A DNA stretch of 64,000 bases from a virus. Its lineage: Duplodnaviria > Caudoviricetes. How positions within the stretch are numbered: position 1 is the stretch's first letter; every line of letters begins with the position of its first letter. The notes under the pieces were generated by a model. It searched no databases and was not told where the DNA came from. It saw nothing but the letters and a program-made list of their open reading frames with translations. Both the position numbers and the translations under genes were made by a program. This document shows, one piece after another, positions 6,109 through 64,000 of this stretch. Location of the stretch: positions 407 through 64,406 of the IMG/VR virus record IMGVR_UViG_3300034104_004892. The stretch is one strand, 5' to 3'.

Positions 6109-8408
6109 TAATGCAAGGGTGTTTCGATAAATACGCCGCCTTGATCTCCTATTTGCGCCGCCTCTCTTAAGGCCTTAGCATATTCCTTTTCTGCTTCAAT
6201 GTCTTCTGCTGTTTTTGGCCGTGGATTTACTCTAAACTCTTGAATTAAATCAGCAAAATCTCGATCTGTCGGCCGTTCTGGCGGCAAATAAGCCTCCGGC
6301 CTGTCTTTATTTTTTGCAATTCTAGATGCAAGTATTTTTGCATCATGTTCAATTGTTTGTTTTTTGGACAGTAGTTTTTGCGCTTCAGCGGTAGGTGCCG
6401 ACTTTAACTGCGATTGAATCATCATCAATTCTGAGCCGAATTTTTTCATTTCTTCAGCCGCTTCTTTTTTAAGCATCATTTTTTGACCGATTTCTGTTCC
6501 GCCAGTAAAATAAGGATGCAGAGCGGCAGGATCTTCAAATCCTCGTTTATTAGCCCAGTACGTACGATATCGGGTGACTTCCTCGTTGGCTCTTTGAGCT
6601 TTTTCGTTGTAAACCTCGGCCCCAAGTCTGGCAATTTCATCGCGTTCTTCCTGAACAAGAATATCGCCCGTTAACTTGCCCTTGCTCCACGCTTCAGCTC
6701 GCGCCATCCACGGTCTTGATTTTTCAATTAAATGCAATTCTGCCTCGGTAGGAGTTGCACCCCGCGCCATTCGGGCAACAATTTGGAGCAAATCGTTATC
6801 AAAAAGAGTTTTGTTTTTGTTTTTTGGATCGCTGGCTTTTCCGTAAGACGCCAGCAAAAGTGGAATTGAAGCACTCGGGCCTCCTTTTTGCGCAAAATCT
6901 TGAACCAACGGGTTCCGGTTTACTTGCTGCTCGTGAGCCACAACAGCAGACTTCGCGACGCTTTCCTGCCGGAGCTTTAGCTGCTCGAGCTTAGGATCCA
7001 ATTTTGCTGGAGCGTCTTTGCGAATGTACTCCGGGTTTCGGTAAACTCCACGAGCGTCGGGCTTCCCGGGAGATACCATCCGGTATGGCATAGTAGGATC
7101 AGCTTCAATCATCTCAGCAAATCCAGCAGCGATGTTTCGATTTTTAAACGTAGCAGGCAAACTGGCAATCGACCCCGGTCTGTATTGAGGCGCAGCGACG
7201 GGTGCGGCAGCGGGTGCTGCGGCTGGCGCTGCGGCGTTCGGAGCTTGTTCTTGAGGTTGCGTCCGGCTTGACATTATTTGAGCCGCTTTAATTGCGTTTG
7301 CGCTTTTTGCGGTAACATCAGGTTCGCCGGGCGCAGGCATCGGCACTTGCGGCTGAGGCGCCTCCGAAGTTGCTGATGGAGGAGGCGTAAACGGCTCTAC
7401 CGGGGTCACGAATGAAGGCTCCATGCCCAACAGAATATTTTTAGGCGCAGCTACTGGCCGTCCTGCAAATAGTGATTGAGCCTCCGCTCTAAAATCTGGA
7501 GTTCCGGCTGTTTGCTGACCCGTAGTAATTGTTTGCGGAGGCAATAGCGCCCCCGGGCTCATTGTTGGTTGGCCGCCTCCCGGCTGCAATTGAGGTGGCT
7601 CGGGCGGTTTAATAAACGTAGCTCGCAACCCATCTAAAACTCCCGTTGCCGGAGACTCCAACGCGCCGGGTGCTGGCATCAATCCAAGTTCAAACTCGGG
7701 AACTTGTATTGAATCGAATTCTGGAATTTCTGAGAGTTGAGCAATTTGCTCATCTGTTGTCTTTGGAATTGCGAGATCTAAATCTTCAAAAATCGGAGGC
7801 GCCGTTAGCTGAGGAGTGGTGCGAATTGAAAATCCACTCGGAGACGCATCGCGGCCTTTCGCTTGATCAACGCTTGTTGGGGACGCATTTGCCCCGACGC
7901 CCGGAGCCTGCTCTTGAGCTGCTGCTGCTTTTTCAGCCGGGGTTGGCGCGTCGCTTGGTTTTTGATTTGTAGCGCCGCCGAAACGCTTCACCGTGTCATT
8001 CCAAGCATCGCCTACGTTGTCGTACCCATCCGGGCCGCCAGCTCGAGTTGCATCGATTCGAGCCTTGAGCATTTTCATGCGGTGCTCTTCCTTGGCCATT
8101 TGAAGACGCTCCTTGGCCTCATTCTCCCGGAAGGTTTGCTCGCGCTCCCATCGAGCCGCCGCTTCGGCGTCTTTTACGTCTTGCCGCTTGTCTCTGTAAT
8201 ACCCCTTGATGGCATCGGCAATTCCAGCCCCGGCAGCTAAAATGCCTTGAGAGTTGTCTCGAGGCGTCGGCACAACCCATGCGGGAAGCTCCCTAAATTG
8301 CAAAGGAGTTCCAACCCGGTACGGCTTAACCTGAGCCAGTGCCGGGAGATTTAAGTTTGGTGCAACTGCATTGAATTGCACCCCGCTCGGGTTGACGTAG
8401 GGAGGCAT
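6108..8408 (-). CDS. Internal virion / DNA ejection protein (766 aa)
   Basis: Long ORF with a Pro/Ala-rich disordered middle and helical C-terminus; lies between small ejection proteins and the giant protein. Confidence 0.75.
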   Translation of the reverse strand: MPPYVNPSGVQFNAVAPNLNLPALAQVKPYRVGTPLQFRELPAWVVPTPRDNSQGILAAGAGIADAIKGYYRDKRQDVKDAEAAARWEREQTFRENEAKERLQMAKEEHRMKMLKARIDATRAGGPDGYDNVGDAWNDTVKRFGGATNQKPSDAPTPAEKAAAAQEQAPGVGANASPTSVDQAKGRDASPSGFSIRTTPQLTAPPIFEDLDLAIPKTTDEQIAQLSEIPEFDSIQVPEFELGLMPAPGALESPATGVLDGLRATFIKPPEPPQLQPGGGQPTMSPGALLPPQTITTGQQTAGTPDFRAEAQSLFAGRPVAAPKNILLGMEPSFVTPVEPFTPPPSATSEAPQPQVPMPAPGEPDVTAKSANAIKAAQIMSSRTQPQEQAPNAAAPAAAPAAAPVAAPQYRPGSIASLPATFKNRNIAAGFAEMIEADPTMPYRMVSPGKPDARGVYRNPEYIRKDAPAKLDPKLEQLKLRQESVAKSAVVAHEQQVNRNPLVQDFAQKGGPSASIPLLLASYGKASDPKNKNKTLFDNDLLQIVARMARGATPTEAELHLIEKSRPWMARAEAWSKGKLTGDILVQEERDEIARLGAEVYNEKAQRANEEVTRYRTYWANKRGFEDPAALHPYFTGGTEIGQKMMLKKEAAEEMKKFGSELMMIQSQLKSAPTAEAQKLLSKKQTIEHDAKILASRIAKNKDRPEAYLPPERPTDRDFADLIQEFRVNPRPKTAEDIEAEKEYAKALREAAQIGDQGGVFIETPLH

Positions 8409-11299: not shown

Positions 11300-11542
11300 T
11301 TAGAATAGTGTAACAGCCACCGAATCGTCAATTTTCGACTCAACCTTTGCGGCCTCGACCGCAATAATTTCAAGCCGGGTGTTCGAGTTGCCGCAAACAA
11401 CGCATGGCAGGCAAAGTCCGGTAGTGCGATTGTCGATTGGGATCGACGAGTACAGCGGGATGACGCCATCGTTTCCGTACGGGGAGACGAAAAGGTTTGG
11501 AAACTCCAAAACTGGCTCGGATGCTGTTTTGATGGAAGGCAT
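11300..11542 (-). CDS. Small Cys-containing protein (CLPCVVC)
   Basis: 80-aa ORF filling the gap after the nozzle gene. Confidence 0.65.
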   Translation of the reverse strand: MPSIKTASEPVLEFPNLFVSPYGNDGVIPLYSSIPIDNRTTGLCLPCVVCGNSNTRLEIIAVEAAKVESKIDDSVAVTLF

Positions 11543-30124: not shown

Positions 30125-31102
30125 TTAGTTTGTTGCTGCCCGGAATCCGAATGCAGCCTCATTTTTGGCTGGATCCCGGTATCCGCGATTCATTGTGCGA
30201 CTGAGCCCGACTTCGGAACTCCAGCCGCCTCCGCGCACTCGGCGCCCGTAGAGCGGAGCCGCGTCGTCAAAGCACCATTCAGCCACGTTTCCGCTCATAT
30301 CGTAGAGCGACAGCTCGTTGGCAGTTTTTGTGCGAACAGGTTGGGCTCCAGCGTTGAGGCTTGGTTGATTTTCACGAGTCCAAGCAACGGCATTGGCAGT
30401 GTTGCTGCCAGCGTAGGTGTAAGAGCCGCTCGAAACGCCTCCCCACGCCGACCATTCCCATTCCTTTTCAGTTGGCAGGCGATATCCAGTGCCCCCGGCA
30501 TCAACGGTCGGCACAACTTCACCAGTAGTGTACCACACTTTGACGGCGGCAGTTGTAGCGGCGGCCGTGCCACTCACTACAGTGCTGTAAGTAAAGGTCG
30601 TTGCGCTTTTAACAGTGACGCTGCGAGTCAGGTTGTACCCGGCAACGCTCGCTCCGGAAACCGTTACCCAGTTTCCAGTAGCCAGCTTGTGGCCTGCGGG
30701 AACGGTAGCCGTTGCCACCGTTCCAGTGCTGGAGAGCGCGGTAATAGCGAGCGTCCCGGTGAAATACACGGGAGTTAGCGTGCCCTGCTGCAATGTCGCG
30801 GCATTGCACCACTTGAGCGCGTCGTACCAATCGACATTTTCGACAGGAGCAGTAGCGGATTTGCCAGAGCCAGCGTTAAGATCGAAGCCGTTTGCAATGG
30901 CGTACGTTCGGACGCTTTGCCATTCGGTGAAATTGACTTCGGTTTCTCCCATTTTCACGGCAGGCGCGGCCTGCCCTTTGAAGTTTGTCCCATTGCCGAA
31001 GGTTCCCCCGGCTACGGTGACAAACGTGTTCCAGACTGCATGCCCGTCATTTGCAAAGGCAATGGACAGGGCAACGGCTAAGATTCCTTTGAGGAATTTC
31101 AT
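30125..31102 (-). CDS. Secreted FGE-sulfatase (SUMF1/C-type-lectin fold) protein with an inserted beta domain
   Basis: Signal peptide MKFLKGILAVALSIAFANDGHA; PVENVDWYDALKWCN, YRLPTEKEWEWSA, NELSLYDMSGNVAEWCFD, RGGGW and GFR motifs. Confidence 0.85.
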   Translation of the reverse strand: MKFLKGILAVALSIAFANDGHAVWNTFVTVAGGTFGNGTNFKGQAAPAVKMGETEVNFTEWQSVRTYAIANGFDLNAGSGKSATAPVENVDWYDALKWCNAATLQQGTLTPVYFTGTLAITALSSTGTVATATVPAGHKLATGNWVTVSGASVAGYNLTRSVTVKSATTFTYSTVVSGTAAATTAAVKVWYTTGEVVPTVDAGGTGYRLPTEKEWEWSAWGGVSSGSYTYAGSNTANAVAWTRENQPSLNAGAQPVRTKTANELSLYDMSGNVAEWCFDDAAPLYGRRVRGGGWSSEVGLSRTMNRGYRDPAKNEAAFGFRAATN

Positions 31103-31157
31103 GTGTATGTGCTTGTTGGTTAAGGTGTTTTTGCTTGAACACAAACCAATCAAGACA

Positions 31158-43515: not shown

Positions 43516-43587
43516 CGCGGGTTGGAGAAGAGGCATCTCGTCACGCTCATAACGTGAAGACCGACGGTTCGAGTCCGTCACCCGCAA
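43516..43587 (+). tRNA. trnM: tRNA-Met(CAT), initiator-like
   Basis: Cloverleaf with C1:A72 mismatch, D-stem GAGA/TCTC (A11-U24), anticodon arm TCACG-CTCATAA-CGTGA and T-arm GACGG-TTCGAGT-CCGTC; no encoded CCA. Confidence 0.88.
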
Positions 43588-43588
43588 T

Positions 43589-43663
43589 GCCGGAATAGCT
43601 CAGTGGTAGAGCAGGGCTTTTGTAAAGCTCAGGTCGTCGGTTCAATCCCGACTTCCGGCTCCA
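43589..43663 (+). tRNA. trnT: tRNA-Thr(TGT)
   Basis: GCCGGAA/TTCCGGC acceptor stem, TAGCTCAGTGGTAGAGC D-arm, loop TTTGTAA, GGTTCAATCC and encoded CCA. Confidence 0.92.
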
Positions 43664-49660: not shown

Positions 49661-49870
49661 TTAGTTGTCGAAATCGGCGCAATCTTCGCACCATCCGGCT
49701 GCGTTAAGATCCCGAACCGGGAGTTCAACGCGGCATTCGGTGCATTCGACCCGAAATCCTGAGATTCTGTGGTCGGTGCAGAGCGCCGCAATGCCTAGCG
49801 GCAGTATTGAGCCGTTTACGCGCAATGCGCGTTCGCCTGTAGTTTTGTGGGTAATTGCTGTGACTTTCAT
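49661..49870 (-). CDS. Small zinc-finger protein
   Basis: CTEC..CEDC; follows hammerhead C. Confidence 0.6.
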   Translation of the reverse strand: MKVTAITHKTTGERALRVNGSILPLGIAALCTDHRISGFRVECTECRVELPVRDLNAAGWCEDCADFDN

Positions 49871-49904
49871 GTTTGTGTATTAGTTTGGTTGGTTGGTTGG
49901 TTCT

Positions 49905-49959
49905 CTGACGGCCTCGTCAGGTAGCGCGTGACGCTATGACGCCCGAAGGCGTTTCGGCC
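49905..49959 (-). ncRNA. Type II hammerhead ribozyme (copy C)
   Basis: GGCC-GAAAC-GCC-UUCG-GGC-GUC^A-UAGCGU-CAC-GCGCUA-C-CUGACGA-GGCC; predicted cut 49938/49937; A-C mismatch at the base of stem I. Confidence 0.8.
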
Positions 49960-50112
49960 TTAGCGAGTTGAAAGAACGTAGCGAATCAATTGCTTTATAA
50001 CTGGAAGCGTTTTCCTATTTTTCAACACCCACAAAAGGTTTTCGGTGAGCCAATCTCCGTAGAGATTGGTTGCCACTTGTTTATCGATGTCTGTTAGTGC
50101 TGTTTTTTTCAT
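49960..50112 (-). CDS. Small early protein
   Basis: MKKTALTD...; its stop abuts hammerhead C. Confidence 0.55.
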   Translation of the reverse strand: MKKTALTDIDKQVATNLYGDWLTENLLWVLKNRKTLPVIKQLIRYVLSTR

Positions 50113-50243
50113 TGGATCAGGTTTGGTTGGTTGGTTGGACTGACGGGAGCGATCCAATACTACACCGAAGCTGGCGTCACGTTATTTTTTCGATTCTTTT
50201 TTTAACTCTTAGATAAATGCCGCAATCCCAGGGTTTTACGAGC

Positions 50244-50555
50244 TTACATTTTTTTAATTTTTGCAAGCTCGTCTGCTGCTTCGGCCGCTAGTTTTTTCAG
50301 CTCATCGAACTTATTTTTTGTAACCTTCTTGTTCACAATGAATTCTGATATTCCAGCAGAGTTGCTTTTCGCTAAATTTTGAGTTCCTTTTCCGCGCTCG
50401 AGCAAATAAGAAACTCCTGCACGCCTAGACTTTACAACAGCCCGGTAATACAGCGAGCGAGCGTGTTTTTCGCTACACTTTAACTTTCGGCAAATCTGTT
50501 CGTACGAGTATCCGGCGGCCCGGTGCCAGTATACAAACGCCTCCTTCTGATTCAT
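50244..50555 (-). CDS. HTH protein (sigma region 4-like)
   Basis: AGYSYEQICRKLKCSEKHARSLY; ATGA coupling. Confidence 0.65.
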   Translation of the reverse strand: MNQKEAFVYWHRAAGYSYEQICRKLKCSEKHARSLYYRAVVKSRRAGVSYLLERGKGTQNLAKSNSAGISEFIVNKKVTKNKFDELKKLAAEAADELAKIKKM

Positions 50556-51214
50556 TTCCGGTACGACTCCCAATCGCAAACGGCCACGCCCCCTGCTTCA
50601 ACGATACGGCTTGAAATGCTGTCCCCGATTGCCGCAAGAAACGCCTCCCGGTTTTGGTTGCTGATCAGGATGGTGTCCTTCTGGGCCTGATATCGACGAT
50701 CGACCAGATGCGTCAGCAGACGATCCTCCCAAGCCGTCTCTCCACGCTCCTGCACCTCGTCGAGCACGAGCAGGGCCGGGACAACGTAGGATTCAATCAC
50801 CCGCCGCTCGGATCCGCCTGTCTCCCGGTAGGACTCTTTGATCGCCAAGAAAAACTCCATCGCCGTCGAGTACAGCGGCCGTTTCCCGGCCATTGCAGCA
50901 GCCTTGGCCACCTCCACTGCCAATTGCGTTTTCCCGGCGCCCCGGCGCCCCACAAGCGCGACAATGATGCCGTCGCCAAGTCTGTTTACGACTTTCGTCT
51001 TCAGCTTCAGCCACGGGGCTCCCGTCAACTCTTGCGGCGGGACGTTCCGGTGACGCGCCGGGATGTTCGATTTTGAGAGGTATTCGACTCCCTTCTCCCG
51101 GAGCGCCCGGGCGGCCTGCTCGCGTTCCCAAGCCTTCCACTCCTCCTCATTCAAAGTCTGGAACGACGATTTTTTCAACAAACTCTCTGCTACGTTTTTC
51201 GCTTCGGTGATCAT
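50552..51214 (-). CDS. DnaC/IstB-like helicase loader ATPase
   Basis: GRRGAGKT, LLVLDE, LVDRRY..TILISN, ISSRI. Confidence 0.9.
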   Translation of the reverse strand: MITEAKNVAESLLKKSSFQTLNEEEWKAWEREQAARALREKGVEYLSKSNIPARHRNVPPQELTGAPWLKLKTKVVNRLGDGIIVALVGRRGAGKTQLAVEVAKAAAMAGKRPLYSTAMEFFLAIKESYRETGGSERRVIESYVVPALLVLDEVQERGETAWEDRLLTHLVDRRYQAQKDTILISNQNREAFLAAIGDSISSRIVEAGGVAVCDWESYRK

Positions 51215-51938
51215 TCGGTTTGGTTGTTTTATTGTTGTGGTCGTGACCCTGCCATCCGTTGATGATGGCCCGGTCGATATCCTCAATGGTGCGCTGGACG
51301 CCGTTCTTGACCGCCCTAACCCACGTCCGGGGGAGCGAGACAGGGTTGACTGGCTTCTTGCTGCGATTGCGGTACTCCACCCAATCCAACCACGCCTGCC
51401 GAAACTCCGGGACATCCAACTCGCCCGGGAGCCCGGCAAACCAATCCACGCCCGCGTTAGCGGGCTTCCCCCGCTTGCGGGGGTTAGGGGGTATAGTTTG
51501 GTTATTGGTTTCTGGTTTATGGTTATTGGTTGGCATGCCGCTTGGTTGGCATGCCGTCGGCAGGTTATTCGCTGCCGTCGGCAGTGTTTGAGCTGCCGAC
51601 GGCATGCCGTCGGTAGATTTGGCATACCGCTTCAACGCTCGTTCCCGCTGCGCCTCGCCGAACGCCCGGTACTTCGCTAACACCTCGTCGCACCGTTTGT
51701 TTGTGAGCAGGCCAGCCTCTGAGCGCCCAAAGAACTCGGCGACCACGGCCTCCACGGCGGCTTTCTCGTCAGCCGACCGGGCTCCCAGTTTGCGGCACAG
51801 CCCGGGAATGTCGCCCGGGATGGGGCCGTCGTTAAGGTAGTAGAGATCGAGCAGGCGGCCGTAAATGCCGTGCTCAAGCAACGACAGGTGCCCCGTGTCG
51901 CGGAGGTAGTCCCCAATGTGGCGGGGGTAAGAATTCAT
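51147..51938 (-). CDS. Replication initiator (DUF1376/YdaU family)
   Basis: YPRHIGDYLRDTGHLSLLEHGIYGRLLDLYY; C-terminal AWLDWVEYR..AIINGWQG. Confidence 0.85.
   Translation of the reverse strand: MNSYPRHIGDYLRDTGHLSLLEHGIYGRLLDLYYLNDGPIPGDIPGLCRKLGARSADEKAAVEAVVAEFFGRSEAGLLTNKRCDEVLAKYRAFGEAQRERALKRYAKSTDGMPSAAQTLPTAANNLPTACQPSGMPTNNHKPETNNQTIPPNPRKRGKPANAGVDWFAGLPGELDVPEFRQAWLDWVEYRNRSKKPVNPVSLPRTWVRAVKNGVQRTIEDIDRAIINGWQGHDHNNKTTKPNDHRSEKRSREFVEKIVVPDFE
51530..51615. repeat. Iteron-like repeats (probable replication origin) inside the initiator gene
   Basis: TGCCGTCGG x3 plus one inverted copy and GGCATGCC palindrome x3, next to a strand-biased (GGTT/TTATT) tract. Confidence 0.6.
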
Positions 51939-52353
51939 CGATAGTGAAAATTGAAATTTGAATTGATGGCGTCTCGCCTTTAGCTGCGTAGATTTTTTGA
52001 ATACGGGCATCGCAGATCTGCCCGTCGTCCGCCCAAAAGCCTGCCAGAGCATCCTGTAGCCCTTTAAGCAGGTTATCGTGGTCGGGGCGCAAATCCATCC
52101 AGAGTCGTCCAGCCGGGTCTTTCTTCCGCTGCAAACGAGACGGCCGGGCCATCACAAATAGGACTTCAATCCCAAGAGGCCCGGCCAGTGCTTGTTTTGG
52201 TGTATGCGCTCTCGCGAAGAGCCGGATTGCATCCAGATACCGCGTCGTGCGTTTGTCTTTAAAAAAGATCGGCTTCCCGCCTTTCACAAACATTCGCTTG
52301 CCTCCCGTTTGCACCGGGATGGCTTCGATCGGTATCTGGAACACAATCCTCAT
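51874..52353 (-). CDS. rusA: RusA-family Holliday junction resolvase
   Basis: RPDHDNLLKGLQDALAGFWADDGQI..KIY. Confidence 0.88.
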   Translation of the reverse strand: MRIVFQIPIEAIPVQTGGKRMFVKGGKPIFFKDKRTTRYLDAIRLFARAHTPKQALAGPLGIEVLFVMARPSRLQRKKDPAGRLWMDLRPDHDNLLKGLQDALAGFWADDGQICDARIQKIYAAKGETPSIQISIFTIDEFLPPPHWGLPPRHGAPVVA

Positions 52354-52356
52354 CGC

Positions 52357-52956
52357 TTAGAAGGGGATGTCGTCACCCTCCAATTGCTCCTCGATGGGTC
52401 GATCCGCATACACGGTCGGCTGCGGACGCCGGGCGGGCGCCGGGGCTGCCGCCGGAGATCCAACCTCAGCTTTGACAGACGCTGTTAGCGCCTTGAGTTT
52501 GCGCACGAGGCTCGCGGCCTTGTTTTGTGAGAGCACAGCCACAGCCCTGACTTTATCGGGGTCGTTGAGCCAGCTCACCTCATAGATCGGATCCCCGTTT
52601 TTTGCGTAGCGCAATGATCTCGTTCCGTTCTCGTTTGCGCGAGTTGCTTGCTCCACCGTGATTGACACGGGCCTACCTTCGAGGAACGGACTGCCGGATG
52701 ACAGCAGCTCAAACCAATTGTCCGGCACATGCAGTGCTTCCACAAGCATGCGCGTTGTTCGGTCGATGACTTTGTCGCTGCTGAGAAATCCGTTCCACGT
52801 TATTTCGCAGCCGCTTTGTTCGCCTTCATCCTCGGCAATGACTAACGGGAGTCTCACGAACGGTGAACCGTTGTCAGTTTCACTTAGCCATCCTCCTGTT
52901 TTTGGCCGTTCGATGTATGCCCGGTAACGTCCGGGCGCCGATACGTATTTGCTCAT
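52357..52956 (-). CDS. Single-stranded DNA-binding protein (DUF669-like)
   Basis: Start MSKYVSAPGRY; acidic tail GDDIPF; follows the Sak4-like gene. Confidence 0.75.
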   Translation of the reverse strand: MSKYVSAPGRYRAYIERPKTGGWLSETDNGSPFVRLPLVIAEDEGEQSGCEITWNGFLSSDKVIDRTTRMLVEALHVPDNWFELLSSGSPFLEGRPVSITVEQATRANENGTRSLRYAKNGDPIYEVSWLNDPDKVRAVAVLSQNKAASLVRKLKALTASVKAEVGSPAAAPAPARRPQPTVYADRPIEEQLEGDDIPF

Positions 52957-52973
52957 TTTGTTTCTCCGATTTT

Positions 52974-53852
52974 TTACTGCAAGGACTGTAGTTTGGTGAT
53001 GCCCGCTTTGACGCGATCTGCTGACAGCGTCTCGAGCGGCGTTTTTGTGTACCGCGCTTTCTCTTCCGGCGTCAACTTCGCGGTCGCGAGTAGTGCCCGA
53101 AATTCGTCGCGTAGCTTCGCAGGATTGTTCGCGTCTACAGCGGCCGCGAATTCTTCCCACGAAAGGTTGAGAACCTCTGGCAGGTTCAAACGATTTTTTG
53201 CGTCCCACCCCGGGCTCCATGTTGTTTGGATGATGCGGCCGCCACCAATTGTTTTTTCGGTGCGCCCCCCGGCAGCCTTCGTCTTGAAGACCTCGTACGT
53301 CGCAAAAAGGCACGCATCAGGCCATTCCCGGAGGATCCCGGTAAAGCCTTTGTGACCCTTCATTTCGTATCGCTCCCAAGCGTCACCGCCCGGGGCAGTG
53401 AACGTCCGAATCTGAACGTGCGACAATAAGATGATGCCGATTTTCTGGCGCTCGCGAAGAGTGTCGAGTTTATTGAGCAGCGCGGACAGCTCGAACTCGG
53501 CAACTTTGTACCCCTTTCCAAACCCGTAGCCTTCAATGTTGGGCTGGCCGTCCCTTTTGCAAATGAACGAATGAATGCTGCGCTCGAGCCAGTCGGTCGT
53601 ATCGACCACGAGCGTCTTGTATCCTTCCGACTTTGCCGTCAGTGCTTCAACGGTAGCAACGACGTCAGCGTAAGATTCTGGAGCGATGCGGGCAACGTGA
53701 TCGAGCCCGGTGAGCCCCTGTTCCTGCGATATAAACAAGGGCTCCGGCGCTGCCGCTGCAAACGTAGATTTACCTATGCCTTCCGGGCCTGAGAGAAGAA
53801 CCCGGGGCGGCAGGCTTTCCCCGCCGCGTTTGATTTTTTGAAGTATGCTCAT
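52974..53852 (-). CDS. AAA_24 / Sak4-like single-strand annealing ATPase
   Basis: GPEGIGKST, TLVVDTTDWLE, GYGFGKGY, ILLSH, AKNR. Confidence 0.88.
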   Translation of the reverse strand: MSILQKIKRGGESLPPRVLLSGPEGIGKSTFAAAAPEPLFISQEQGLTGLDHVARIAPESYADVVATVEALTAKSEGYKTLVVDTTDWLERSIHSFICKRDGQPNIEGYGFGKGYKVAEFELSALLNKLDTLRERQKIGIILLSHVQIRTFTAPGGDAWERYEMKGHKGFTGILREWPDACLFATYEVFKTKAAGGRTEKTIGGGRIIQTTWSPGWDAKNRLNLPEVLNLSWEEFAAAVDANNPAKLRDEFRALLATAKLTPEEKARYTKTPLETLSADRVKAGITKLQSLQ

Positions 53853-53864
53853 TGGATTTATTTT

Positions 53865-54923
53865 TTACTGATTGCTGATAACGAAATGACGGAGGAACTC
53901 CTCTGCCATCGAGTGAAACCCACTGCCGATGGCGAGGGCTTCATCCGTTTCTCCCAGCCGCTTAGTCGGCTGTTCGTACCGGAGAAAATGATACCTGCTG
54001 CACTTGCGCAGTGCGCTCAGGCGTGAGTTGGTCAGGAACTCTTTTTCGGTCTCCCGGGACTCGAGTTCGGCGTGCTTGGTGCCGCTGGTAAACCGGATGT
54101 TGTCCACGGTTGCTCGGCCGGAGCACAAGTCAAAGAATTCGCATGTGCCAAATGCAGTGCATGCCGATGGGTTCCGGGGCCACAGGTTCCTGTTCCGAAA
54201 ATATAGGATCTGCTGCGACTGCGCCCACGCGTCGTTCATATACTCGAGGAGGTCGCTGTCAGTGCGGCCGACCTCCCGGACGGCGAAGTAGTCTTCGGGC
54301 CGGGAACTAATTTCAGCGAACGTCCGGGACGACAGCTCCTCAAAGGTTTCCGGCCTGCTCTGCACCACGTATGCTAATTCGGCATCGCCAGTCTGCCGCC
54401 ACTTCTTGCCGTCCTTTGTGGTGACCCGATTGCCGAACCCATCCACTACAATCTTCAGGCCATTCTCGTCGAGGATCGGGATATTCCCTAACTTGTACCC
54501 GGGCTTCCGGACAACGTCGTAAACAACGGTGTTCGCATCGATACCGCGATTGCGAAGCGAAAGAATGTACTTGCTGATTTGCGTGTCCATGCCAAGGCGC
54601 CCCCAGTAATTGGAGTCAGTGTCGATGGAGTCGCTCGTGGTCTTGTGCTCAAGAACTTTGAGCACCCCGGTGCGCTTGTCGCGCAGCACGCCGTCGATTT
54701 TCCCGGCCTCCAAAAACGTCCGGGACGGCGCCTCGGTTTCCGGGTTTAACAACGGAAAGCTGAACTCGCTCTCGACCTCGAGGACGTCGTGCGACTCGAG
54801 GATCGGGTAGAACGACTCGACCCATCCCTTGTACAGTCCCCGGGCCTTGGCGGTGGCGACGTCGGTCAAAGGGCACTTCTCGAGCCCGGCTGTGACGGCT
54901 GCAATGAATTGTGGTGATTCCAT
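53865..54923 (-). CDS. PD-(D/E)XK Cas4/RecB-like exonuclease, circularly permuted
   Basis: GKIDGV..EHKTT, QISKY and Cx5Cx5C; the LTNSRL..C..Y..GSGFH segment that is normally N-terminal lies at the C-terminus. Confidence 0.85.
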   Translation of the reverse strand: MESPQFIAAVTAGLEKCPLTDVATAKARGLYKGWVESFYPILESHDVLEVESEFSFPLLNPETEAPSRTFLEAGKIDGVLRDKRTGVLKVLEHKTTSDSIDTDSNYWGRLGMDTQISKYILSLRNRGIDANTVVYDVVRKPGYKLGNIPILDENGLKIVVDGFGNRVTTKDGKKWRQTGDAELAYVVQSRPETFEELSSRTFAEISSRPEDYFAVREVGRTDSDLLEYMNDAWAQSQQILYFRNRNLWPRNPSACTAFGTCEFFDLCSGRATVDNIRFTSGTKHAELESRETEKEFLTNSRLSALRKCSRYHFLRYEQPTKRLGETDEALAIGSGFHSMAEEFLRHFVISNQ

Positions 54924-54924
54924 A

Positions 54925-55146
54925 TTAGATTCTGCTGAGTGCTTCTAAAGCGGCAAAGAACGTGATTCCGGTGAGGGCAAGGATCGCAAGAAACTCGTAC
55001 GGAGTTTCTGCGAGTCGGTACAGGAACCCAACATCGGCCGCAGCCAGAAGCAAGCTGGCCACTGCATATGGTAAAGGGTTTTCCGGACGAGGCTCCGAGG
55101 GCAGTAAAACACTCGGCCGATAATTGCGGTTGCGGTTACGATTCAT
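54925..55146 (-). CDS. Two-TM membrane protein
   Basis: Two hydrophobic segments. Confidence 0.65.
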   Translation of the reverse strand: MNRNRNRNYRPSVLLPSEPRPENPLPYAVASLLLAAADVGFLYRLAETPYEFLAILALTGITFFAALEALSRI

Positions 55147-55373
55147 TTGGAAAGCTCAAGTAAGATGTGGGGATTGTCGTTTTTAAAAGAATCGACAAGT
55201 TGGTGATGGGCGCGTTCGGCGCTTTCTTTCGATCCGGAATACGTCGCTTCGCCAATTTGATTTCGATTCAAATCTTTGAGTTGAGTGACGTACTGCCGAC
55301 AGCTCGGATTGTACCACGTATCCACGAAGAACGCTTCCGGGTCGTTATAGGTTGGTTTGATGTATGTATGCAT
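55143..55373 (-). CDS. Hypothetical early protein
   Basis: Start MHTYIKP at 55373. Confidence 0.6.
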   Translation of the reverse strand: MHTYIKPTYNDPEAFFVDTWYNPSCRQYVTQLKDLNRNQIGEATYSGSKESAERAHHQLVDSFKNDNPHILLELSK

Positions 55374-55383
55374 GGCTCGGTAA

Positions 55384-55662
55384 TTAAAAAGTGCAGCAGC
55401 CGCAGCAGGGCGCGTCTTGACACTTTCCGGCGCGGTTGCGGTAACCAACCCACCCGGTGCTGGTGACGACGCCGTAGGACGTCTTGTTGCCCCGGGAGAT
55501 GCGCTGTGCTGTTGGCTCGTCAGTGATCTTGCCTCCGGCGCAGGGCTCGCAGGCCACGAGCCAGAATGTGCGGCCGTAGCGGCGGGTCTTGTGGAGGGTT
55601 CCATCGCCTGCCGGGACGTGCGTCCGGCAGGTGTTGCAGTTGGCGTCGTAGCGATTTTTCAT
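55384..55662 (-). CDS. Cys-rich early protein
   Basis: CNTC, CEPC and RNRAGKCQDAPCCGCC motif typical of small phage proteins. Confidence 0.8.
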   Translation of the reverse strand: MKNRYDANCNTCRTHVPAGDGTLHKTRRYGRTFWLVACEPCAGGKITDEPTAQRISRGNKTSYGVVTSTGWVGYRNRAGKCQDAPCCGCCTF

Positions 55663-55693
55663 GGATAGATCGATTGATTAATTGTTACACACT

Positions 55694-55755
55694 CTAACGA
55701 TTGGCCATCGTCAGCACCAGCATTACTGGTGGACGCCCCGAAGGGCGTTTCGGCC
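55694..55755 (-). ncRNA. Type II hammerhead ribozyme (copy B)
   Basis: GGCC-GAAAC-GCCC-UUCG-GGGC-GUC^CACCAGU-AAU-GCUGGUG-CUGACGA-U-GGCC; predicted cut 55732/55731. Confidence 0.85.
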
Positions 55756-56060
55756 TAGATGTAGTCGGCGTTGCTCGAGATCGTGGATCCAAGCGTCCCG
55801 GTACGGAATGCCGGGAGCACCCATGCGTGCGGCGCTGCGATGCCGCCGTATCGAGGGGCGCCCCACTCGTTGATCACCGCGTCCGGGTCGTTGAAAACGA
55901 TCCAGCAGGTGACAAGGGAGGATTTTTTTGCTCCGACTTTGATGAGGTTGTATGCCGCCTCGTAAAGGCTTTTGCCCCTCGCCCAGCGCCCGGACACACC
56001 GGAGGTGGTAAGAAGGAACACTACGTTTTCTGAGTTGGGTATTATGTTTGATAGGGTCAT
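55755..56060 (-). CDS. Hypothetical early protein flanked by two hammerheads
   Basis: 101-aa ORF with an AATCGATAAATAT leader; its TAG overlaps hammerhead B. Confidence 0.7.
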   Translation of the reverse strand: MTLSNIIPNSENVVFLLTTSGVSGRWARGKSLYEAAYNLIKVGAKKSSLVTCWIVFNDPDAVINEWGAPRYGGIAAPHAWVLPAFRTGTLGSTISSNADYI

Positions 56061-56081
56061 ATATTTATCGATTTGAAATTA

Positions 56082-56140
56082 CTGACGGCCATCGTCAGGC
56101 AGGGCACACACCCTACGACGCCCCGAAGGGCGTTTCGGCC
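56082..56140 (-). ncRNA. Type II hammerhead ribozyme (copy A)
   Basis: GGCC-GAAAC-GCCC-UUCG-GGGC-GUC^GUAGGGU-GUGU-GCCCUGC-CUGACGA-U-GGCC; predicted cut 56117/56116. Confidence 0.85.
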
Positions 56141-56144
56141 TTTG

Positions 56145-56399
56145 TTAGGCTTGAGCGGCTTTGGCGTAACCAATGCGCTCTGCCAAGCTCAACAATTCAA
56201 GCTCTTCTAACGCAGCTCGTTTGTCGGCATCTTTGCGATCAAAAATAAGATCGAGAATGAGATCAGAATCGTTAGCTTCGTAAGCCGCTTTTAGATCAGC
56301 TTTAACCTTTGCCAGAGCTGTTTTTGCGGCTGTGACTCGGGTGAACTGGTTAACATAACGGGCGGCAAGTTCTTTAGCAGAAGGAATGTGCGTGTTCAT
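56145..56399 (-). CDS. First early gene, helical protein
   Basis: 84-aa ORF with an AATCGATCCA leader. Confidence 0.7.
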   Translation of the reverse strand: MNTHIPSAKELAARYVNQFTRVTAAKTALAKVKADLKAAYEANDSDLILDLIFDRKDADKRAALEELELLSLAERIGYAKAAQA

Positions 56400-57885: not shown

Positions 57886-58602
57886 TTAGAATGTTCGAGT
57901 TTCCCACAGTTTGCGTGCGTCCGCAACACCTATCACCTTTTTGCCGATGCGCTCGTTAACAGCATTATGCAAATGCACGCCCCACGCAAAAAACGATCCA
58001 AAATCAGGCGGGTTTAATGCGACGTACTCTTTCAGATGCGCCTCGCACGGACAGCCATCAAACGGGAGCGCGGCAATCCATGCATCGAGCCAGTATCGCA
58101 AATCGCCAAATGGCAGACAGGTCTCGTCAGCCCGCAGGCTGTAGAGGTGCAATTCAGACCAGTACCGGGCTCCATGCATTAAAATTTTACTCTTCTGCAA
58201 TTCGCCGCGCTGCTCGATTCGCTCAACCTCGTTGCCAGCGTCCATCACCCATTTGTCGTGTGTTGCCCAATCCGTGGATGTGGCGATGGCGGCTTCGCGC
58301 TCTAGCGCCATTGCAACCACGTGTTGTCGGTGGTACGGCGCCCGGGGATCGTCTCCGGGCTCGTCGAGTTTCGGGTTCTCGACGTCAAACCGGGTGACCT
58401 GCTCGTCGGTCACTCCGTCGCGTTTGCAAAGGTACGCCTCGATCATCTCGTGGATGGCCACCAACAGCACGGAAACGTCACGGCCGCCGTATTCCGGCAC
58501 CTTGAGCATCAAAGCGCCGTCTGGCAGCCATTCCCAGTCCCCGGCGGTGGGGTATCGCATTGCGGCAGGGTCGACAGTCTTAATCTCCACTCTCATTCTC
58601 AA
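57886..58602 (-). CDS. Fusion of a zincin-like HExxE domain and an Erv1/Alr-like sulfhydryl oxidase
   Basis: N-half: RYPTAGDW, AIHEMIEAYLC, HRQHVVAMALE. C-half: WSELH..LPFDGCPCEAH..FFAWGVHLHNAVNERIGK. Confidence 0.75.
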   Translation of the reverse strand: MRMRVEIKTVDPAAMRYPTAGDWEWLPDGALMLKVPEYGGRDVSVLLVAIHEMIEAYLCKRDGVTDEQVTRFDVENPKLDEPGDDPRAPYHRQHVVAMALEREAAIATSTDWATHDKWVMDAGNEVERIEQRGELQKSKILMHGARYWSELHLYSLRADETCLPFGDLRYWLDAWIAALPFDGCPCEAHLKEYVALNPPDFGSFFAWGVHLHNAVNERIGKKVIGVADARKLWETRTF

Positions 58603-60279: not shown

Positions 60280-60504
60280 TTATTCGTCGTTGGTGATTTC
60301 TTCTTTTGCTTGTCCAGCAGCGATACCCAGCGTCAACAAAGAGCCAGTAGAACCGAGGTCATTCAAAAGGCCAAAGCCTTCCGAAGGAACCTCAAGCCCT
60401 ATGTCTCGGAACAGTTGACGAATCTGTTCATCTTGGTCTTTGATTACGTCTGGATTCAGTGGGGCTGCTTGATGTGTTGGATTTGTTTTATTCATCGGAT
60501 TCAT
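60280..60504 (-). CDS. Small acidic protein overlapping the end of the polyvalent gene
   Basis: 74-aa ORF with a 17-nt overlap. Confidence 0.55.
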   Translation of the reverse strand: MNPMNKTNPTHQAAPLNPDVIKDQDEQIRQLFRDIGLEVPSEGFGLLNDLGSTGSLLTLGIAAGQAKEEITNDE

Positions 60505-63500
60505 CGGATTCTTCCTTGCCCGGCTTTGCGTAGCCGTACTCTATCATCAGTTCTTTGTAGCGATCTTTGGATATTTCGTCCCGAAGCACTGCTGCCAGTA
60601 GCTCGGACTTCAACTCAGTATGAGCCTGAGTTTGTTTTGTTGCACTAGCAATTTGAGGAGCATTGGCTTTTGCTTTTTTGATCTGCGCCTTTGTTCTGAT
60701 TGGATATTGCTCAATTGCAGCATTTAACGAATCTGCTCGTCCGCGCCATAGCGTTTCAAAATTAACAGTCTGCGGGAAAGGGGCTGCGCTCGGAGTTGCA
60801 GACAACCTGCTTGCGATGTGGTCGTAAATTGCTTTAGCAAAAGGAGATGTGGTTGTTTTTGATGGATCTTGACCTCTGTAAAAAGTGTCAATTATTGCCT
60901 TTTCAACTGCCATTTTTGGAATGCTGTACTTTGACGTAAGTGCCTGTAGCTGTTGTTGATTTAAAGAAATAGCAGCTTTAAAATCACCTTCATAAAATTG
61001 GTTTCCGACAGCAAGTCCGGCTTCTGTTTCAGTGAAGCCTGTCAGGAACGGATTGCCGTTTGCATCAGTCAGCTTTGCGGCCTCCAAGAAAAAGTTGTTT
61101 CTGTCGCCCGGAGACAGATGAGTTGTGTCAAAAGTCAAAACTAAGTTTTTGACTTTTTGAACATCATTCAACTCTCGAACGCTTGGTTTTCTGATAATGT
61201 TTCCACCATCTTGATCTAGCGCACGGGACAGCGACTCGAGCACCTGATACGTCCGCGCCGGATCCCCTCGCAGCACAATACGCATGTTTGGAGCAATGTT
61301 GAGTTGATTAGCTTCCGTGTACCCTCCTTCGCCGACGGCGACTCTGTCTGCCGTAACTTTCAAACCGTACTTATCGGCAAGCGTGTTAATTACGTTGTGA
61401 AGCCCGTCTGCAACTGAGTCAGTCAAAGTTTTTGCTGCGTTTACGTCTCCCGCTGCTTGCAAGTCTGCAATTCTTTGTTGGATGCGTTTTGCTTCGACGG
61501 AAGTTCCGCTCGATACGACTTCAAGCGGCATCACTTGCCGCGCCATCTCGCCGTACGTTCGATCCATTGCGCCTAGCACGTTTCTTCCAAGGTGACTCCG
61601 CGCTGCGGTAGGTATGCCTCGCAGGGCCATAATCTCGTCCATGAACGGATCAAAGGACGCTTTAAACAGGCTCAGGTCGTTGTTTCGTTTAATCGGATTG
61701 TCGAGTTTTTCAAGCGCCCATAAAATCTCCTGAGCGTTTCGAGCTTTGAGCTTTTCTTTACCAAACATTTTTGCAAACCCAAGCTCGTTCAGGCGGTCAG
61801 CCAGCATGCCGTCGATTGCTTGCTGCGCATCATATAGCGGGCCACCGCCGCCGGGACTAAGCCCTGCCTCTGTAGCTTTGGTGTAGTACGAAAATGGAGT
61901 CGTATCCGGGAATGGCTGTTTTTTACGCGCTTCCCAAGACACTTCATCCCATGCCGCATTTCCGTCAATTTTTAAGGCTCTAGCCTGTTGGTAACGCAAA
62001 TCTTGCGGCCCGGAAATATTCAGTTCTTTCAACACTTTCTGCCATTGAGGAGTGGCCAGTGAGGATTTCTTTTCAAACTTGTCTTGCGACCACTGGAACG
62101 GTTCAGTCTTTTTGTTCCGCTCACTCATCGTCATTAGGTATCCCGGCCACGCCTCGCCTTTCGCCGCCATGTCCCACATGTCAACGGTTGCCTTGCCGTC
62201 TAAAAGCCTCTGCACTTCTTTGATTCCAGCGTCGCTTAATTCTGTTTGAGATGGCTCAAATACGCGCATGGATTTCCCGGCGCGAAGCATGAGTTCCTTC
62301 ACGGCGGCAGCGTCACCTTCTTTTTGCGCCAGCTCAATCAACTCAGCGAGGCCGTTCAAATAAAACGATCTTACCTTGTCCTGCACGCCCGGCAGACTCA
62401 AATCAAAGTGCTCTCCACGCTTCCACGCTTTTTGTGTCGTTGCGGCCCCTATCGCCTGTTCACCCATTCCGATTTTAAATCCGGCCGCAAAGTCGCTTGC
62501 AGATCCAGCGACGGACGAGCCCGATTTTGTGGCATTGGCAGCCACTGCGCTCTTTGGAGATCCCAGCGCCAAGAAACGCATATTCAGCTCGGCAGACAGC
62601 CATTTTTCCATGCCGGAAACATCAGGCTTAATTGCGTCTGCCAGCTTCAACGCAGAGTCAGCCATGTCCGAGTAGAAAGAGGCCGCCTCCAACGCAAACT
62701 GAGGATCTCGAGATGCCACGTTGGTTAGCCGAGTGACCAGACCGTTAAGCAAAGTCTGCACGTCTTTAAATGATTTCGGCATTCCAACGATGTTGGCGTT
62801 TACGAGCCCGTAGCGCGGCGGCAAGGTGACGGAGTCGGCGTTTGGATTAACAGGGTATGGAAGCGTGTCTGCATCGACCTGTTTGGCCTTTTTGTCGGCA
62901 AGTGCATCGAGCTTTCTCATCTCCTCTTCGGAAGTGAGAGATTTTTTGGCGTTCAGGCTAAACTGAACTCCAGACAAGGCATCTTTAGAGAGCAGGCGTT
63001 CTTTTTCTTTAGGATCCATCTGGATGCCCTCCAGCACCCCGGGCGAACCTTCATTGGTAAGGCTGAACCGAACGTCGCCAGTGCCCGAGTTGAACCGTTC
63101 TGAAAGCGGAATCAGATTGCCTTCGTTGTCGTACGTGAACGGATCAGCGGATTTAATTTGAGACGGGTCAAACACAACTGCGACCTCAATATCTCCCCTT
63201 TCCGCTGCTGCTTTTCCTCCGTGCGCACCAATCACACCATCATATCCCTGCTCTCGTAATTGTCTGTCGTAATATTCCCACCCTTGAGCATCCGTTATGC
63301 GATCTGGAATCCACGGATTCTCCATTTTTAAATACACATCGTAAACAGCGCCAGAATCAGGAGACGACGATGACCTCCAACCGTATGCGTAGTTTTCTGC
63401 TTTTTGTTTATCAGAGGTAAAATATGTTTCGTCCGCTTTTTCAAAAACGTACGCATTGCCTTTGAGGTAATCATTTTCAACACCTCGATACATTTTGTAT

Positions 63501-64000
63501 TTGTATCCGGCAGCCCTAGCAGCTTCATCAACCAACCCACGGGCCTGCTCTTCGTCCTTGGCCTCGAAAGCTGCTTTGTATTCGGAGTCGAGCTTCTCAG
63601 GGTTTCTGAGGCTGAATTTAGGTTCACCTTCCCAATATTCTAAAGCCGTCGGATCAGTCAAAAATGGCTTCAGCTCGGCGTACCTCTCTTGGCTGATTTT
63701 GCCGTTTATCAGCTTGCCTCTCATCAGCCTGTTGAACTGCTCAATCGTCGCAGCGTCCGCTTCTGTAGCAAAACGAAACGGTGTATCAATCAGAAAAATA
63801 TTTTCAGCTCCGTTTGCGTCAAATCCGGAAACAACATTCCCAGAATGAGCATCTTGAAGAAACACCCTTCCTTTAGGGTTGTAGTATTCTAAGTGCCTAT
63901 AAGAAGGTATCTTAAAAAAGTTTCTTTCTGCCAAAAAATCACTGATTTGCTCTTGGGACAAGGGCGCCTCGCTGATGTCAATATATGGCTGTCTTGTAAC
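60488..64000 (-). CDS. Giant polyvalent protein, C-terminal part: kinase-like, ADP-ribosyltransferase-like and HhH-glycosylase-like domains
   Basis: Frame open to the right edge (VTRQPYI..). Kinase DAHSGNV; ART-PolyVal pattern YRG..YFT..VYLKMENP..GYDGVI..VVFDPSQIKSA; glycosylase-like SPK..KVRSFYLN..TVDMW..AQEILW. Confidence 0.85.
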   Translation of the reverse strand, partial: VTRQPYIDISEAPLSQEQISDFLAERNFFKIPSYRHLEYYNPKGRVFLQDAHSGNVVSGFDANGAENIFLIDTPFRFATEADAATIEQFNRLMRGKLINGKISQERYAELKPFLTDPTALEYWEGEPKFSLRNPEKLDSEYKAAFEAKDEEQARGLVDEAARAAGYKYKMYRGVENDYLKGNAYVFEKADETYFTSDKQKAENYAYGWRSSSSPDSGAVYDVYLKMENPWIPDRITDAQGWEYYDRQLREQGYDGVIGAHGGKAAAERGDIEVAVVFDPSQIKSADPFTYDNEGNLIPLSERFNSGTGDVRFSLTNEGSPGVLEGIQMDPKEKERLLSKDALSGVQFSLNAKKSLTSEEEMRKLDALADKKAKQVDADTLPYPVNPNADSVTLPPRYGLVNANIVGMPKSFKDVQTLLNGLVTRLTNVASRDPQFALEAASFYSDMADSALKLADAIKPDVSGMEKWLSAELNMRFLALGSPKSAVAANATKSGSSVAGSASDFAAGFKIGMGEQAIGAATTQKAWKRGEHFDLSLPGVQDKVRSFYLNGLAELIELAQKEGDAAAVKELMLRAGKSMRVFEPSQTELSDAGIKEVQRLLDGKATVDMWDMAAKGEAWPGYLMTMSERNKKTEPFQWSQDKFEKKSSLATPQWQKVLKELNISGPQDLRYQQARALKIDGNAAWDEVSWEARKKQPFPDTTPFSYYTKATEAGLSPGGGGPLYDAQQAIDGMLADRLNELGFAKMFGKEKLKARNAQEILWALEKLDNPIKRNNDLSLFKASFDPFMDEIMALRGIPTAARSHLGRNVLGAMDRTYGEMARQVMPLEVVSSGTSVEAKRIQQRIADLQAAGDVNAAKTLTDSVADGLHNVINTLADKYGLKVTADRVAVGEGGYTEANQLNIAPNMRIVLRGDPARTYQVLESLSRALDQDGGNIIRKPSVRELNDVQKVKNLVLTFDTTHLSPGDRNNFFLEAAKLTDANGNPFLTGFTETEAGLAVGNQFYEGDFKAAISLNQQQLQALTSKYSIPKMAVEKAIIDTFYRGQDPSKTTTSPFAKAIYDHIASRLSATPSAAPFPQTVNFETLWRGRADSLNAAIEQYPIRTKAQIKKAKANAPQIASATKQTQAHTELKSELLAAVLRDEISKDRYKELMIEYGYAKPGKEESDESDE

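Follow-up and report, generated by a model that had tools for sequence, protein, structure and literature searches.

What do three small RNA motifs, each standing directly behind a stop codon on the minus strand of a lake phage, do to the transcript in which they lie? The question arises in a 64,000-nt stretch of DNA (positions 407 to 64,406 of the IMG/VR virus record IMGVR_UViG_3300034104_004892, Caudoviricetes), hereafter the window, which is nearly the whole of a 64,406-bp record with direct terminal repeats. A first-pass annotation, made from the letters of the window, had read the motifs as type II hammerhead ribozymes (here HH1, HH2 and HH3) that divide an early polycistronic RNA into gene-sized units. 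In the present study, we find that the three motifs are real members of a phage hammerhead subclass. We consider it likely, with a probability of roughly 0.75, that the predicted ribozymes cut a long minus-strand RNA after C17, that the freed core then pairs with a 3' tail, and that the same tail damps the active fold before cleavage.

Three hammerheads of one phage-borne subclass

The three minus-strand copies lie exactly where the first-pass annotation had put them, and counting letters bears out its three cut positions as well. Their parts are listed here; the bit scores are those of the covariance model R1, described below, and of the Rfam model RF02276 (Hammerhead_II), which has a gathering score of 37 bits.

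56140-56087, minus strand: HH1, type II hammerhead; R1 56.0 bits, RF02276 26.7 bits
56140-56137 with 56090-56087, minus strand: stem II of HH1
56136-56133, minus strand: GAAA of HH1
56133-56118, minus strand: stem III hairpin of HH1
56117, minus strand: C17 of HH1, predicted cut 56117/56116
56116-56099, minus strand: stem I hairpin of HH1
56098-56092, minus strand: CUGACGA of HH1
56091, minus strand: extra U of HH1
55755-55703, minus strand: HH2, type II hammerhead; R1 63.7 bits, RF02276 30.8 bits
55732, minus strand: C17 of HH2, predicted cut 55732/55731
55731-55715, minus strand: stem I of HH2
55714-55708, minus strand: CUGACGA of HH2
55707, minus strand: extra U of HH2
55706-55703, minus strand: 3' strand of stem II of HH2
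49959-49910, minus strand: HH3, type II hammerhead; R1 64.9 bits, RF02276 20.1 bits; positional counterpart in the related phage G001
49938, minus strand: C17 of HH3, predicted cut 49938/49937
49937-49921, minus strand: stem I of HH3
49920-49914, minus strand: CUGACGA of HH3
49913-49910, minus strand: 3' strand of stem II of HH3

Along the strand every copy runs through GGCC (5' strand of stem II), GAAA, a UUCG-capped stem III, GUC, a stem I hairpin, CUGACGA and a second GGCC (3' strand of stem II), just as the earlier reading had it. Written out, HH1 is GGCC GAAA CGCCC-UUCG-GGGCG UC, cut, GUAGGG-UGUGUG-CCCUGC CUGACGA U GGCC; HH2 has the same stem III with the stem I CACCAG-UAAUG-CUGGUG, and HH3 has the stem III CGCC-UUCG-GGCG with the stem I (A)UAGCG-UCACG-CGCUA(C). 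In hammerhead numbering, C3-U4-G5-A6-N7-G8-A9 appears as CUGACGA in all three copies, and G12-A13-A14, the A15.1-U16.1 pair and H17 (not G) appear as GAAA...GUC with C17. Loops close off stems I and III, and stem II is open, which is the type II topology. When the copies are aligned, they agree throughout the core and stem II and over most of stem III, whereas their stem I sequences are unrelated and yet pair. The claim that stem I had diverged and still pairs therefore stands for the three copies with one blemish, an A.C mismatch at the pair of HH3 that adjoins the core, which leaves five pairs there. The mismatch was missing from the first account, as were the extra U between A9 and stem II in HH1 and HH2, the core-complementary tails and the absence of a pseudoknot, to which we return below.

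The position of the copies behind stop codons is equally regular. The codons are TAA at 56147-56145 (HH1), TAG at 55757-55755 (HH2) and TAA at 49962-49960 (HH3), and stem II starts 4, -1 and 0 nt from their respective ends, in agreement with the limit of about 4 nt given at first; in HH2 the G of TAG is itself the first base of stem II. The repeated letters are specific to one strand, with GGCCGAAAC occurring three times on the minus strand and not at all on the plus strand of the window. A loose core pattern matched the window exactly 3 times, against 0.42 matches expected, and at least 3 matches were reached in 1 of 100 shuffles.

Rfam answered less clearly. At the gathering threshold its models returned no ribozyme in the window, only two tRNAs. 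Under permissive thresholds RF02276 did match all three copies, so that the Rfam search proposed with the first-pass annotation located them, every one of them below the cut-off. Because sub-threshold matches also occur in 11 of 14 control genomes, the Rfam evidence is weak when taken alone, and we therefore built an independent covariance model, R1.

The comparison set came from two pattern scans of IMG/VR with the core and a CGCC/GGCG stem III held fixed, each of which matched at least 123 stretches. Removal of duplicates and of matches near locus ends left 193 distinct hammerheads among the matches listed. In 68 of them the stem I region is long (the pseudoknot class); in the other 125 it does not exceed 19 nt, which makes them the short class, the kind to which the window copies belong. 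R1 rests on an alignment (A2) of 113 of the 119 unique short-class rows, with the window itself left out; the six rows dropped (L003, L134, L142, two in L233, and L234) carry CUGAGGA and atypical stems and were taken as another subtype. On this alignment 96.0% of 1808 pair cells of the hammerhead structure hold standard pairs; shuffles gave 71.7%, and none of 500 came as high. Sliding the partners lowers the pairing to 32-50%. Changes on both sides of a pair were found at all six stem I pairs and at three of the four stem II pairs. Four contiguous stem II pairs are present in 114 of the 125 short-class matches, in 31 sequence combinations. Stem III is invariant in the alignment because the search pattern fixed it. 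We conclude that the short class is a real hammerhead family.

Searched with R1 with the filters off, the window gave exactly three matches, the three copies, and the runner-up reached 11.3 bits. The core, the topology, the family-wide covariation of stems I and II and R1 scores of 56-65 bits all fit the type II identity first proposed. The three motifs are thus real members of a phage hammerhead subclass that the Rfam model under-scores. This phage-borne subclass has a 6-bp stem I, an open stem II of 4 bp and no pseudoknot between loop I and the tail. Such short-stem-I hammerheads are missed at the current Rfam threshold, which matters for annotation.

A tail predicted to mask the core

A pseudoknot between loop I and the tail is reported to be typical of type II hammerheads and important for their speed (PMC3088659). 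In the short class at large, loop I and the tail can form at least 4 bp in only 4 of 125 matches, as against 55 of 68 in the long class. Another contact may have taken its place. Among the 113 aligned members, 105 have an A immediately 5' of stem II and 104 open loop I with a U; taken together, the two positions read A/U in 104, U/A in 5 and otherwise in 4, with A lacking its U in one sequence only. Both bases, the A before stem II and the U that opens loop I, are present in each window copy, and in HH2 and HH3 this A is at the same time a base of the stop codon. In type I/III hammerheads the loops meet in a conserved reverse Hoogsteen A.U pair (review, PMC6155905), and the conserved A of the short class sits at the equivalent of the last loop II base there. 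By analogy, the conserved A probably contacts the first U of loop I and would so replace the missing pseudoknot, though the swaps behind this reading are few.

The second peculiarity is a 3' tail complementary to the core CUGANG, which all three window copies possess. The hairpins that it can form with the core are the following.

56082-56098, minus strand: HH1 masking hairpin, core CUGACG with CGUCAG (GUCAG tail at 56086-56082, preceded by the final C of stem II)
55694-55714, minus strand: HH2 masking hairpin, longer; CUGACGAU pairs with AUCGUUAG in 8 pairs, one of them G.U, with the stem II GGCC in the loop
49905-49920, minus strand: HH3 masking hairpin, CUGACG with CGUCAG (tail GUCAG at 49909-49905)

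Six base pairs of CUGANG with C-N'-UCAG directly after stem II are exact in HH1 and HH3, and HH2 has the 8-bp variant. Inspection of the letters by eye showed no complementarity between the tail and the segment containing the stop codon. In HH1 the masking hairpin and the active hammerhead fold are mutually exclusive. The masked fold consists of three hairpins, namely stem III, stem I and the masking hairpin, and the predicted energies, which leave out tertiary energy, are -29.6 kcal/mol for the masked fold versus -27.9 kcal/mol for the hammerhead in HH1, -29.8 versus -26.6 kcal/mol in HH2, and -22.5 (-22.3 with the 5' strand blocked) versus -19.9 kcal/mol in HH3.

The tail is shared by a part of the family. 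The full 6-bp masking hairpin stands in the same register in 34 of the 113 aligned members, and in these carriers N7, the only free core base, and its partner N' read C:G in 24, U:A in 9 and U:G in 1, with no mismatch (Fisher p 2e-7, kinship ignored). Both states occur inside identical stem II contexts (UGGCC, UGGUC, GACC), which argues, with no tree behind the argument, for several independent changes. The tail motif NNUCAG was found in 2 of 68 pseudoknot-class and in 51 of 125 short-class matches. Across the 34 carriers the masked fold is favoured by a predicted median of 2.2 kcal/mol (range 0.5-4.5), so the two folds are modelled as being near balance. From these sequence comparisons we take the masking tail to be a subclass trait that is selected in a subset of phage hammerheads. 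Shine-Dalgarno leaders were found behind 6 of 34 tail carriers and 41 of 83 non-carriers, a scarcity that may mark one phage or host lineage.

Several of these observations weigh against the idea that the three copies cut their transcript. The masked fold is the predicted minimum-energy fold in all three, by 1.7-3.2 kcal/mol; since the prediction ranks it above the active secondary structure in stability, cleavage could be slow or conditional. The best pairing between loop I and the tail comes to 2, 3 and 2 bp in HH1, HH2 and HH3, the Rfam scores stay below the cut-off, and stem I of HH3 holds a mismatch. As a general feature of the family the masking helix fares poorly, with 57.1% of its cells paired over all 113 members against 55.9% in shuffles. 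Furthermore, the conservation of stem III and of the core in the comparison set is there by construction, related sequences inflate the family counts, and the E-values of R1 are rough, large as its score gap is.

The first four points would also suit a different reading, in which the copies are inactive relics or structured spacers, that is, three-hairpin modules that serve as recognition sites for an RNase or another protein, or as stabilising hairpins, with the core as a leftover. We regard this as very improbable. The catalytic core bases are all intact in three paralogues in which the diverged stem I still pairs, and stem II, which the active fold alone needs, covaries across the family. 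The related phage G001 tells the same story, as its counterpart of HH3 keeps the core and a neighbouring hammerhead has a different but compensated stem III.

Proposed cleavage between small genes of a long transcript

How would cleavage act on the genes around the copies? The open reading frames (ORFs) concerned are these.

56145-56399, minus strand: 84-aa ORF with its TAA stop 4 nt before stem II of HH1; no family match
55755-56060, minus strand: 101-aa ORF between HH1 and HH2
55384-55662, minus strand: 92-aa ORF downstream of HH2; leader without a Shine-Dalgarno motif
49960-50157, minus strand: 65-aa ORF with its TAA adjoining HH3
49661-49870, minus strand: 69-aa ORF downstream of HH3; CA-rich leader without a Shine-Dalgarno motif

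The minus strand carries nearly every gene from 63961 to 6108. The hammerheads surround a replication and recombination module at 50.5-55 kb (exonuclease, Sak4-like annealing protein, RusA, primosomal/O-like protein and DnaC-like loader), and a 1157-aa polyvalent protein that contains an ADP-ribosyltransferase domain is encoded upstream of them. It is a reasonable inference that the three copies lie within an early or middle polycistronic transcript.

On the reading that we prefer, the minus strand of this early and replication region would be transcribed as a long RNA, in which each ribozyme would fold and cut after C17 (56117, 55732 and 49938). The upstream RNA would then end 22-24 nt beyond its stop codon, closed by the UUCG hairpin of stem III and bearing a 2',3'-cyclic phosphate, while the downstream RNA would carry a 5'-OH and start flush with the stem I hairpin. 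The products would be expected to separate because only the 4-bp stem II holds them together. The freed core CUGACG(A) could then pair with the conserved tail, so that two neighbouring hairpins would open the downstream message, ahead of a CA-rich leader without structure. Since the tail would compete with the active fold before cleavage as well, the ribozyme would be damped or bistable and not simply constitutive. Cleavage at both HH1 and HH2 would yield a 385-nt single-gene RNA (56116-55732) with the 101-aa ORF.

A plausible role, close to that of the first-pass annotation and the usual hypothesis for phage hammerheads in clusters (PMC3088659), is to divide a polycistronic transcript into gene-sized RNAs that open flush in a 5' hairpin. 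The layout fits such processing: the genes all lie on one strand, the minus strand, and our scan of that strand called neither a promoter-like nor a terminator-like site next to any of the three copies. The stretches that lead from the ribozyme tails to the next starts (49870-49905, 55662-55694 and 56060-56082, minus strand) are A/C-rich and have no Shine-Dalgarno motif, a hint of a host independent of Shine-Dalgarno pairing.

Related phages show where such elements come and go. Among 15 loci with a 60-82% identical exonuclease, R1 found 4 matches in 3 loci. In G001 (L249), a 49.7-kb relative, the counterpart to HH3 follows the helicase-loader gene; its tail and leader are almost the same as in the window, and its stem I differs. 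A second hammerhead at 7926-7997 (minus strand), 300 nt beyond the first, scores 46.9 bits with R1; in it CAGGG/CCCUG with a 7-nt loop replaces the CGCC/GGCG of stem III, and the GUCAG masking tail is kept. The HH1/HH2 block, absent from G001, occupies a variable slot flanked by conserved genes. The 65-aa ORF, which precedes HH3 in the window, has a homologue in L254 that is found downstream of a hammerhead. The related phages are syntenic and their hammerheads sporadic, and hammerheads and small accessory ORFs thus look as if moved from slot to slot, in line with published descriptions of hammerhead-flanked genes as small and not conserved (PMC3088659, PMC6155905).

The closest relative found, L252 (exonuclease 77% identical), has no hammerhead within 6 kb. 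In its slot equivalent to HH1/HH2 it carries, at 4862-4884 (plus strand), a 10-bp terminator-like hairpin that starts on a stop codon. A sigma-70-like promoter near 11329 of the same locus was rejected, having the wrong spacing and not being called by the scan. Such a hairpin over a stop codon, and hammerheads that turn up in variable accessory-gene slots of so few related loci, could be taken to mean that the window copies are transcription terminators or DNA-level repeats at recombination or cassette boundaries. To this we give next to no credence. No U-run follows any of the hairpins, the terminator scan of the minus strand was silent at the copies, and what is conserved is an RNA catalytic core with compensated helices and not the DNA sequence of the arms.

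Processing by hammerheads, as we favour it, might further depend on translation. In one such scenario, a ribosome that terminates at the upstream stop codon would sit on the conserved A and on the 5' strand of stem II, the core would be masked, and cutting would take place mainly without upstream translation, or briefly before masking. The stop codons overlap or adjoin stem II in the window. Of the 193 family matches, 166 lie behind an ORF of 40 codons or more, and in 141 of these the stop codon ends no more than 8 nt from G12. With the 5' GGCC blocked, all three copies are predicted to take the masked fold; the small energy differences in the 34 carriers and the covariation of N7 with the tail speak for the same idea. 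On the other side, a stop codon within 8 nt is about as common without the tail (61 of 76 non-carriers) as with it (27 of 29 carriers), and therefore tail and stop codon are not specifically linked. A short 3' untranslated region alone explains a ribozyme near a stop codon, and the scarcity of Shine-Dalgarno leaders in carriers may reflect a single lineage only. Taken together, this makes the scenario rather unlikely in our eyes. In its wider form, a two-state device in which cutting between genes depends on ribosome occupancy of the upstream stop codon, translation-gated self-cleavage is an idea suggested by the modelled folds that we put forward only tentatively. The active state would require the RNA at or just behind that stop codon, namely the stem II 5' strand together with the conserved A as partner of loop I, whereas the inactive state would bury the core in a hairpin about as stable. 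No description of it in natural hammerheads was found in literature listings.

Other features of the window are given for completeness.

60488-63961, minus strand: 1157-aa protein, ART-PolyVal ADP-ribosyltransferase domain (family match)
57886-58602, minus strand: 238-aa protein, Erv1/Alr thiol oxidase family (family match)
30125-31153, minus strand: 342-aa protein, FGE-sulfatase domain (family match)
43516-43587 and 43589-43660, plus strand: two adjacent tRNA genes (57.7 and 68.6 bits) amid minus-strand genes
51541-51615, plus strand: long near-perfect hairpin

The structural genes are mostly without a family match. The microRNA-model match of the long hairpin is due to chance (33.6 bits against a cut-off of 88). 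The 101-aa ORF has no Pfam or PHROG family and no relative among viral contigs, a protein atlas gave nothing usable, and its homologues number 3 only, all hypothetical proteins. Compared by megablast with the GenBank phage collection, the 8-kb hammerhead region gave no match.

The sequencing runs of DNA that contain the window come from lake water, and four of them were compared as contigs; no RNA sequencing run containing the window DNA was found. In these lake contigs the depth rises to 46-64 in the bins 51468-51688 and 55225-55445, with loose contig ends at about 51498/51533 and 55384/55422, which suggests short segments common to many other genomes. One contig of a lake run (X3) seems to join 49920 to 55732. 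We do not read it as a deletion, as 18 other letters lie between the two sides; with the conserved halves of HH3 and HH2 and another stem I, it is evidently a different hammerhead of the same subclass from a co-occurring phage.

Comparison with known systems

Clustered hammerheads that flank small phage genes have been known since 2011, and the window copies add to that kind. Perreault et al. (2011) described type II hammerheads as abundant in prophages and clustered around single genes, and proposed that they process long phage transcripts; clusters of this sort cleaved in vitro, and one set also did so in E. coli (PMC3088659). The window copies are like the type II hammerheads of that report and of RF02276 in their core, their permuted topology and their intergenic position in a phage, and the extra U after A9 also appears in 39 of the 68 pseudoknot-class matches. 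They differ from the type II consensus in a short stem I (6 bp with a loop of 5-6 nt), a stem II of 4 bp instead of 2-3, the lack of the pseudoknot, scores below the Rfam cut-off and the presence of a core-complementary tail. Full-text searches of the literature turned up no description of the masking tail or of a contact made by a stop-codon A, and the supplements of Perreault et al. (2011) may hold such tails or members without a pseudoknot.

The closest parallels are the prophage clusters of Agrobacterium tumefaciens (the ardA triple), Clostridium scindens and Azorhizobium caulinodans, which likewise bracket one or more small, non-conserved genes in a long transcript (PMC3088659). Their cleavage was observed experimentally, that of the window copies is predicted, and the 101-aa gene flanked in the window has only its three hypothetical relatives. 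In Desulfovibrio vulgaris, three type II hammerheads near phage-like genes cleave in cells, with ends mapped by cyPhyRNA-seq, and two of them lie about 300 nt apart, a likeness that we draw from their description (PMC8782182). As for type I/III hammerheads (PMC6155905), the conserved A and the loop I U of the window class could make the same contact as theirs; the window class has no loop II, and its A is unpaired, stands before an open stem II and is often a base of the upstream stop codon.

Reviews still treat what hammerheads do for bacteria and phages as an open question (PMC6765202, PMC6155905). To this question the present study contributes three clean examples, taken from a lake phage that is complete at 64 kb. 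The masking hairpin and the covariation of the stop-adjacent A with loop I can be tested directly with short transcripts and, if confirmed, would provide a specific mechanism that links cleavage, protection of RNA ends and possibly translation.

In the early mRNA of phage T7, RNase III sites serve to cut the polycistronic transcript between genes, leaving hairpins at the ends. The first-pass annotation had drawn this parallel for the window copies. Unlike the T7 sites, hammerheads would do the cutting by RNA catalysis, independently of a host enzyme, and would leave 5'-OH and 2',3'-cyclic phosphate ends.

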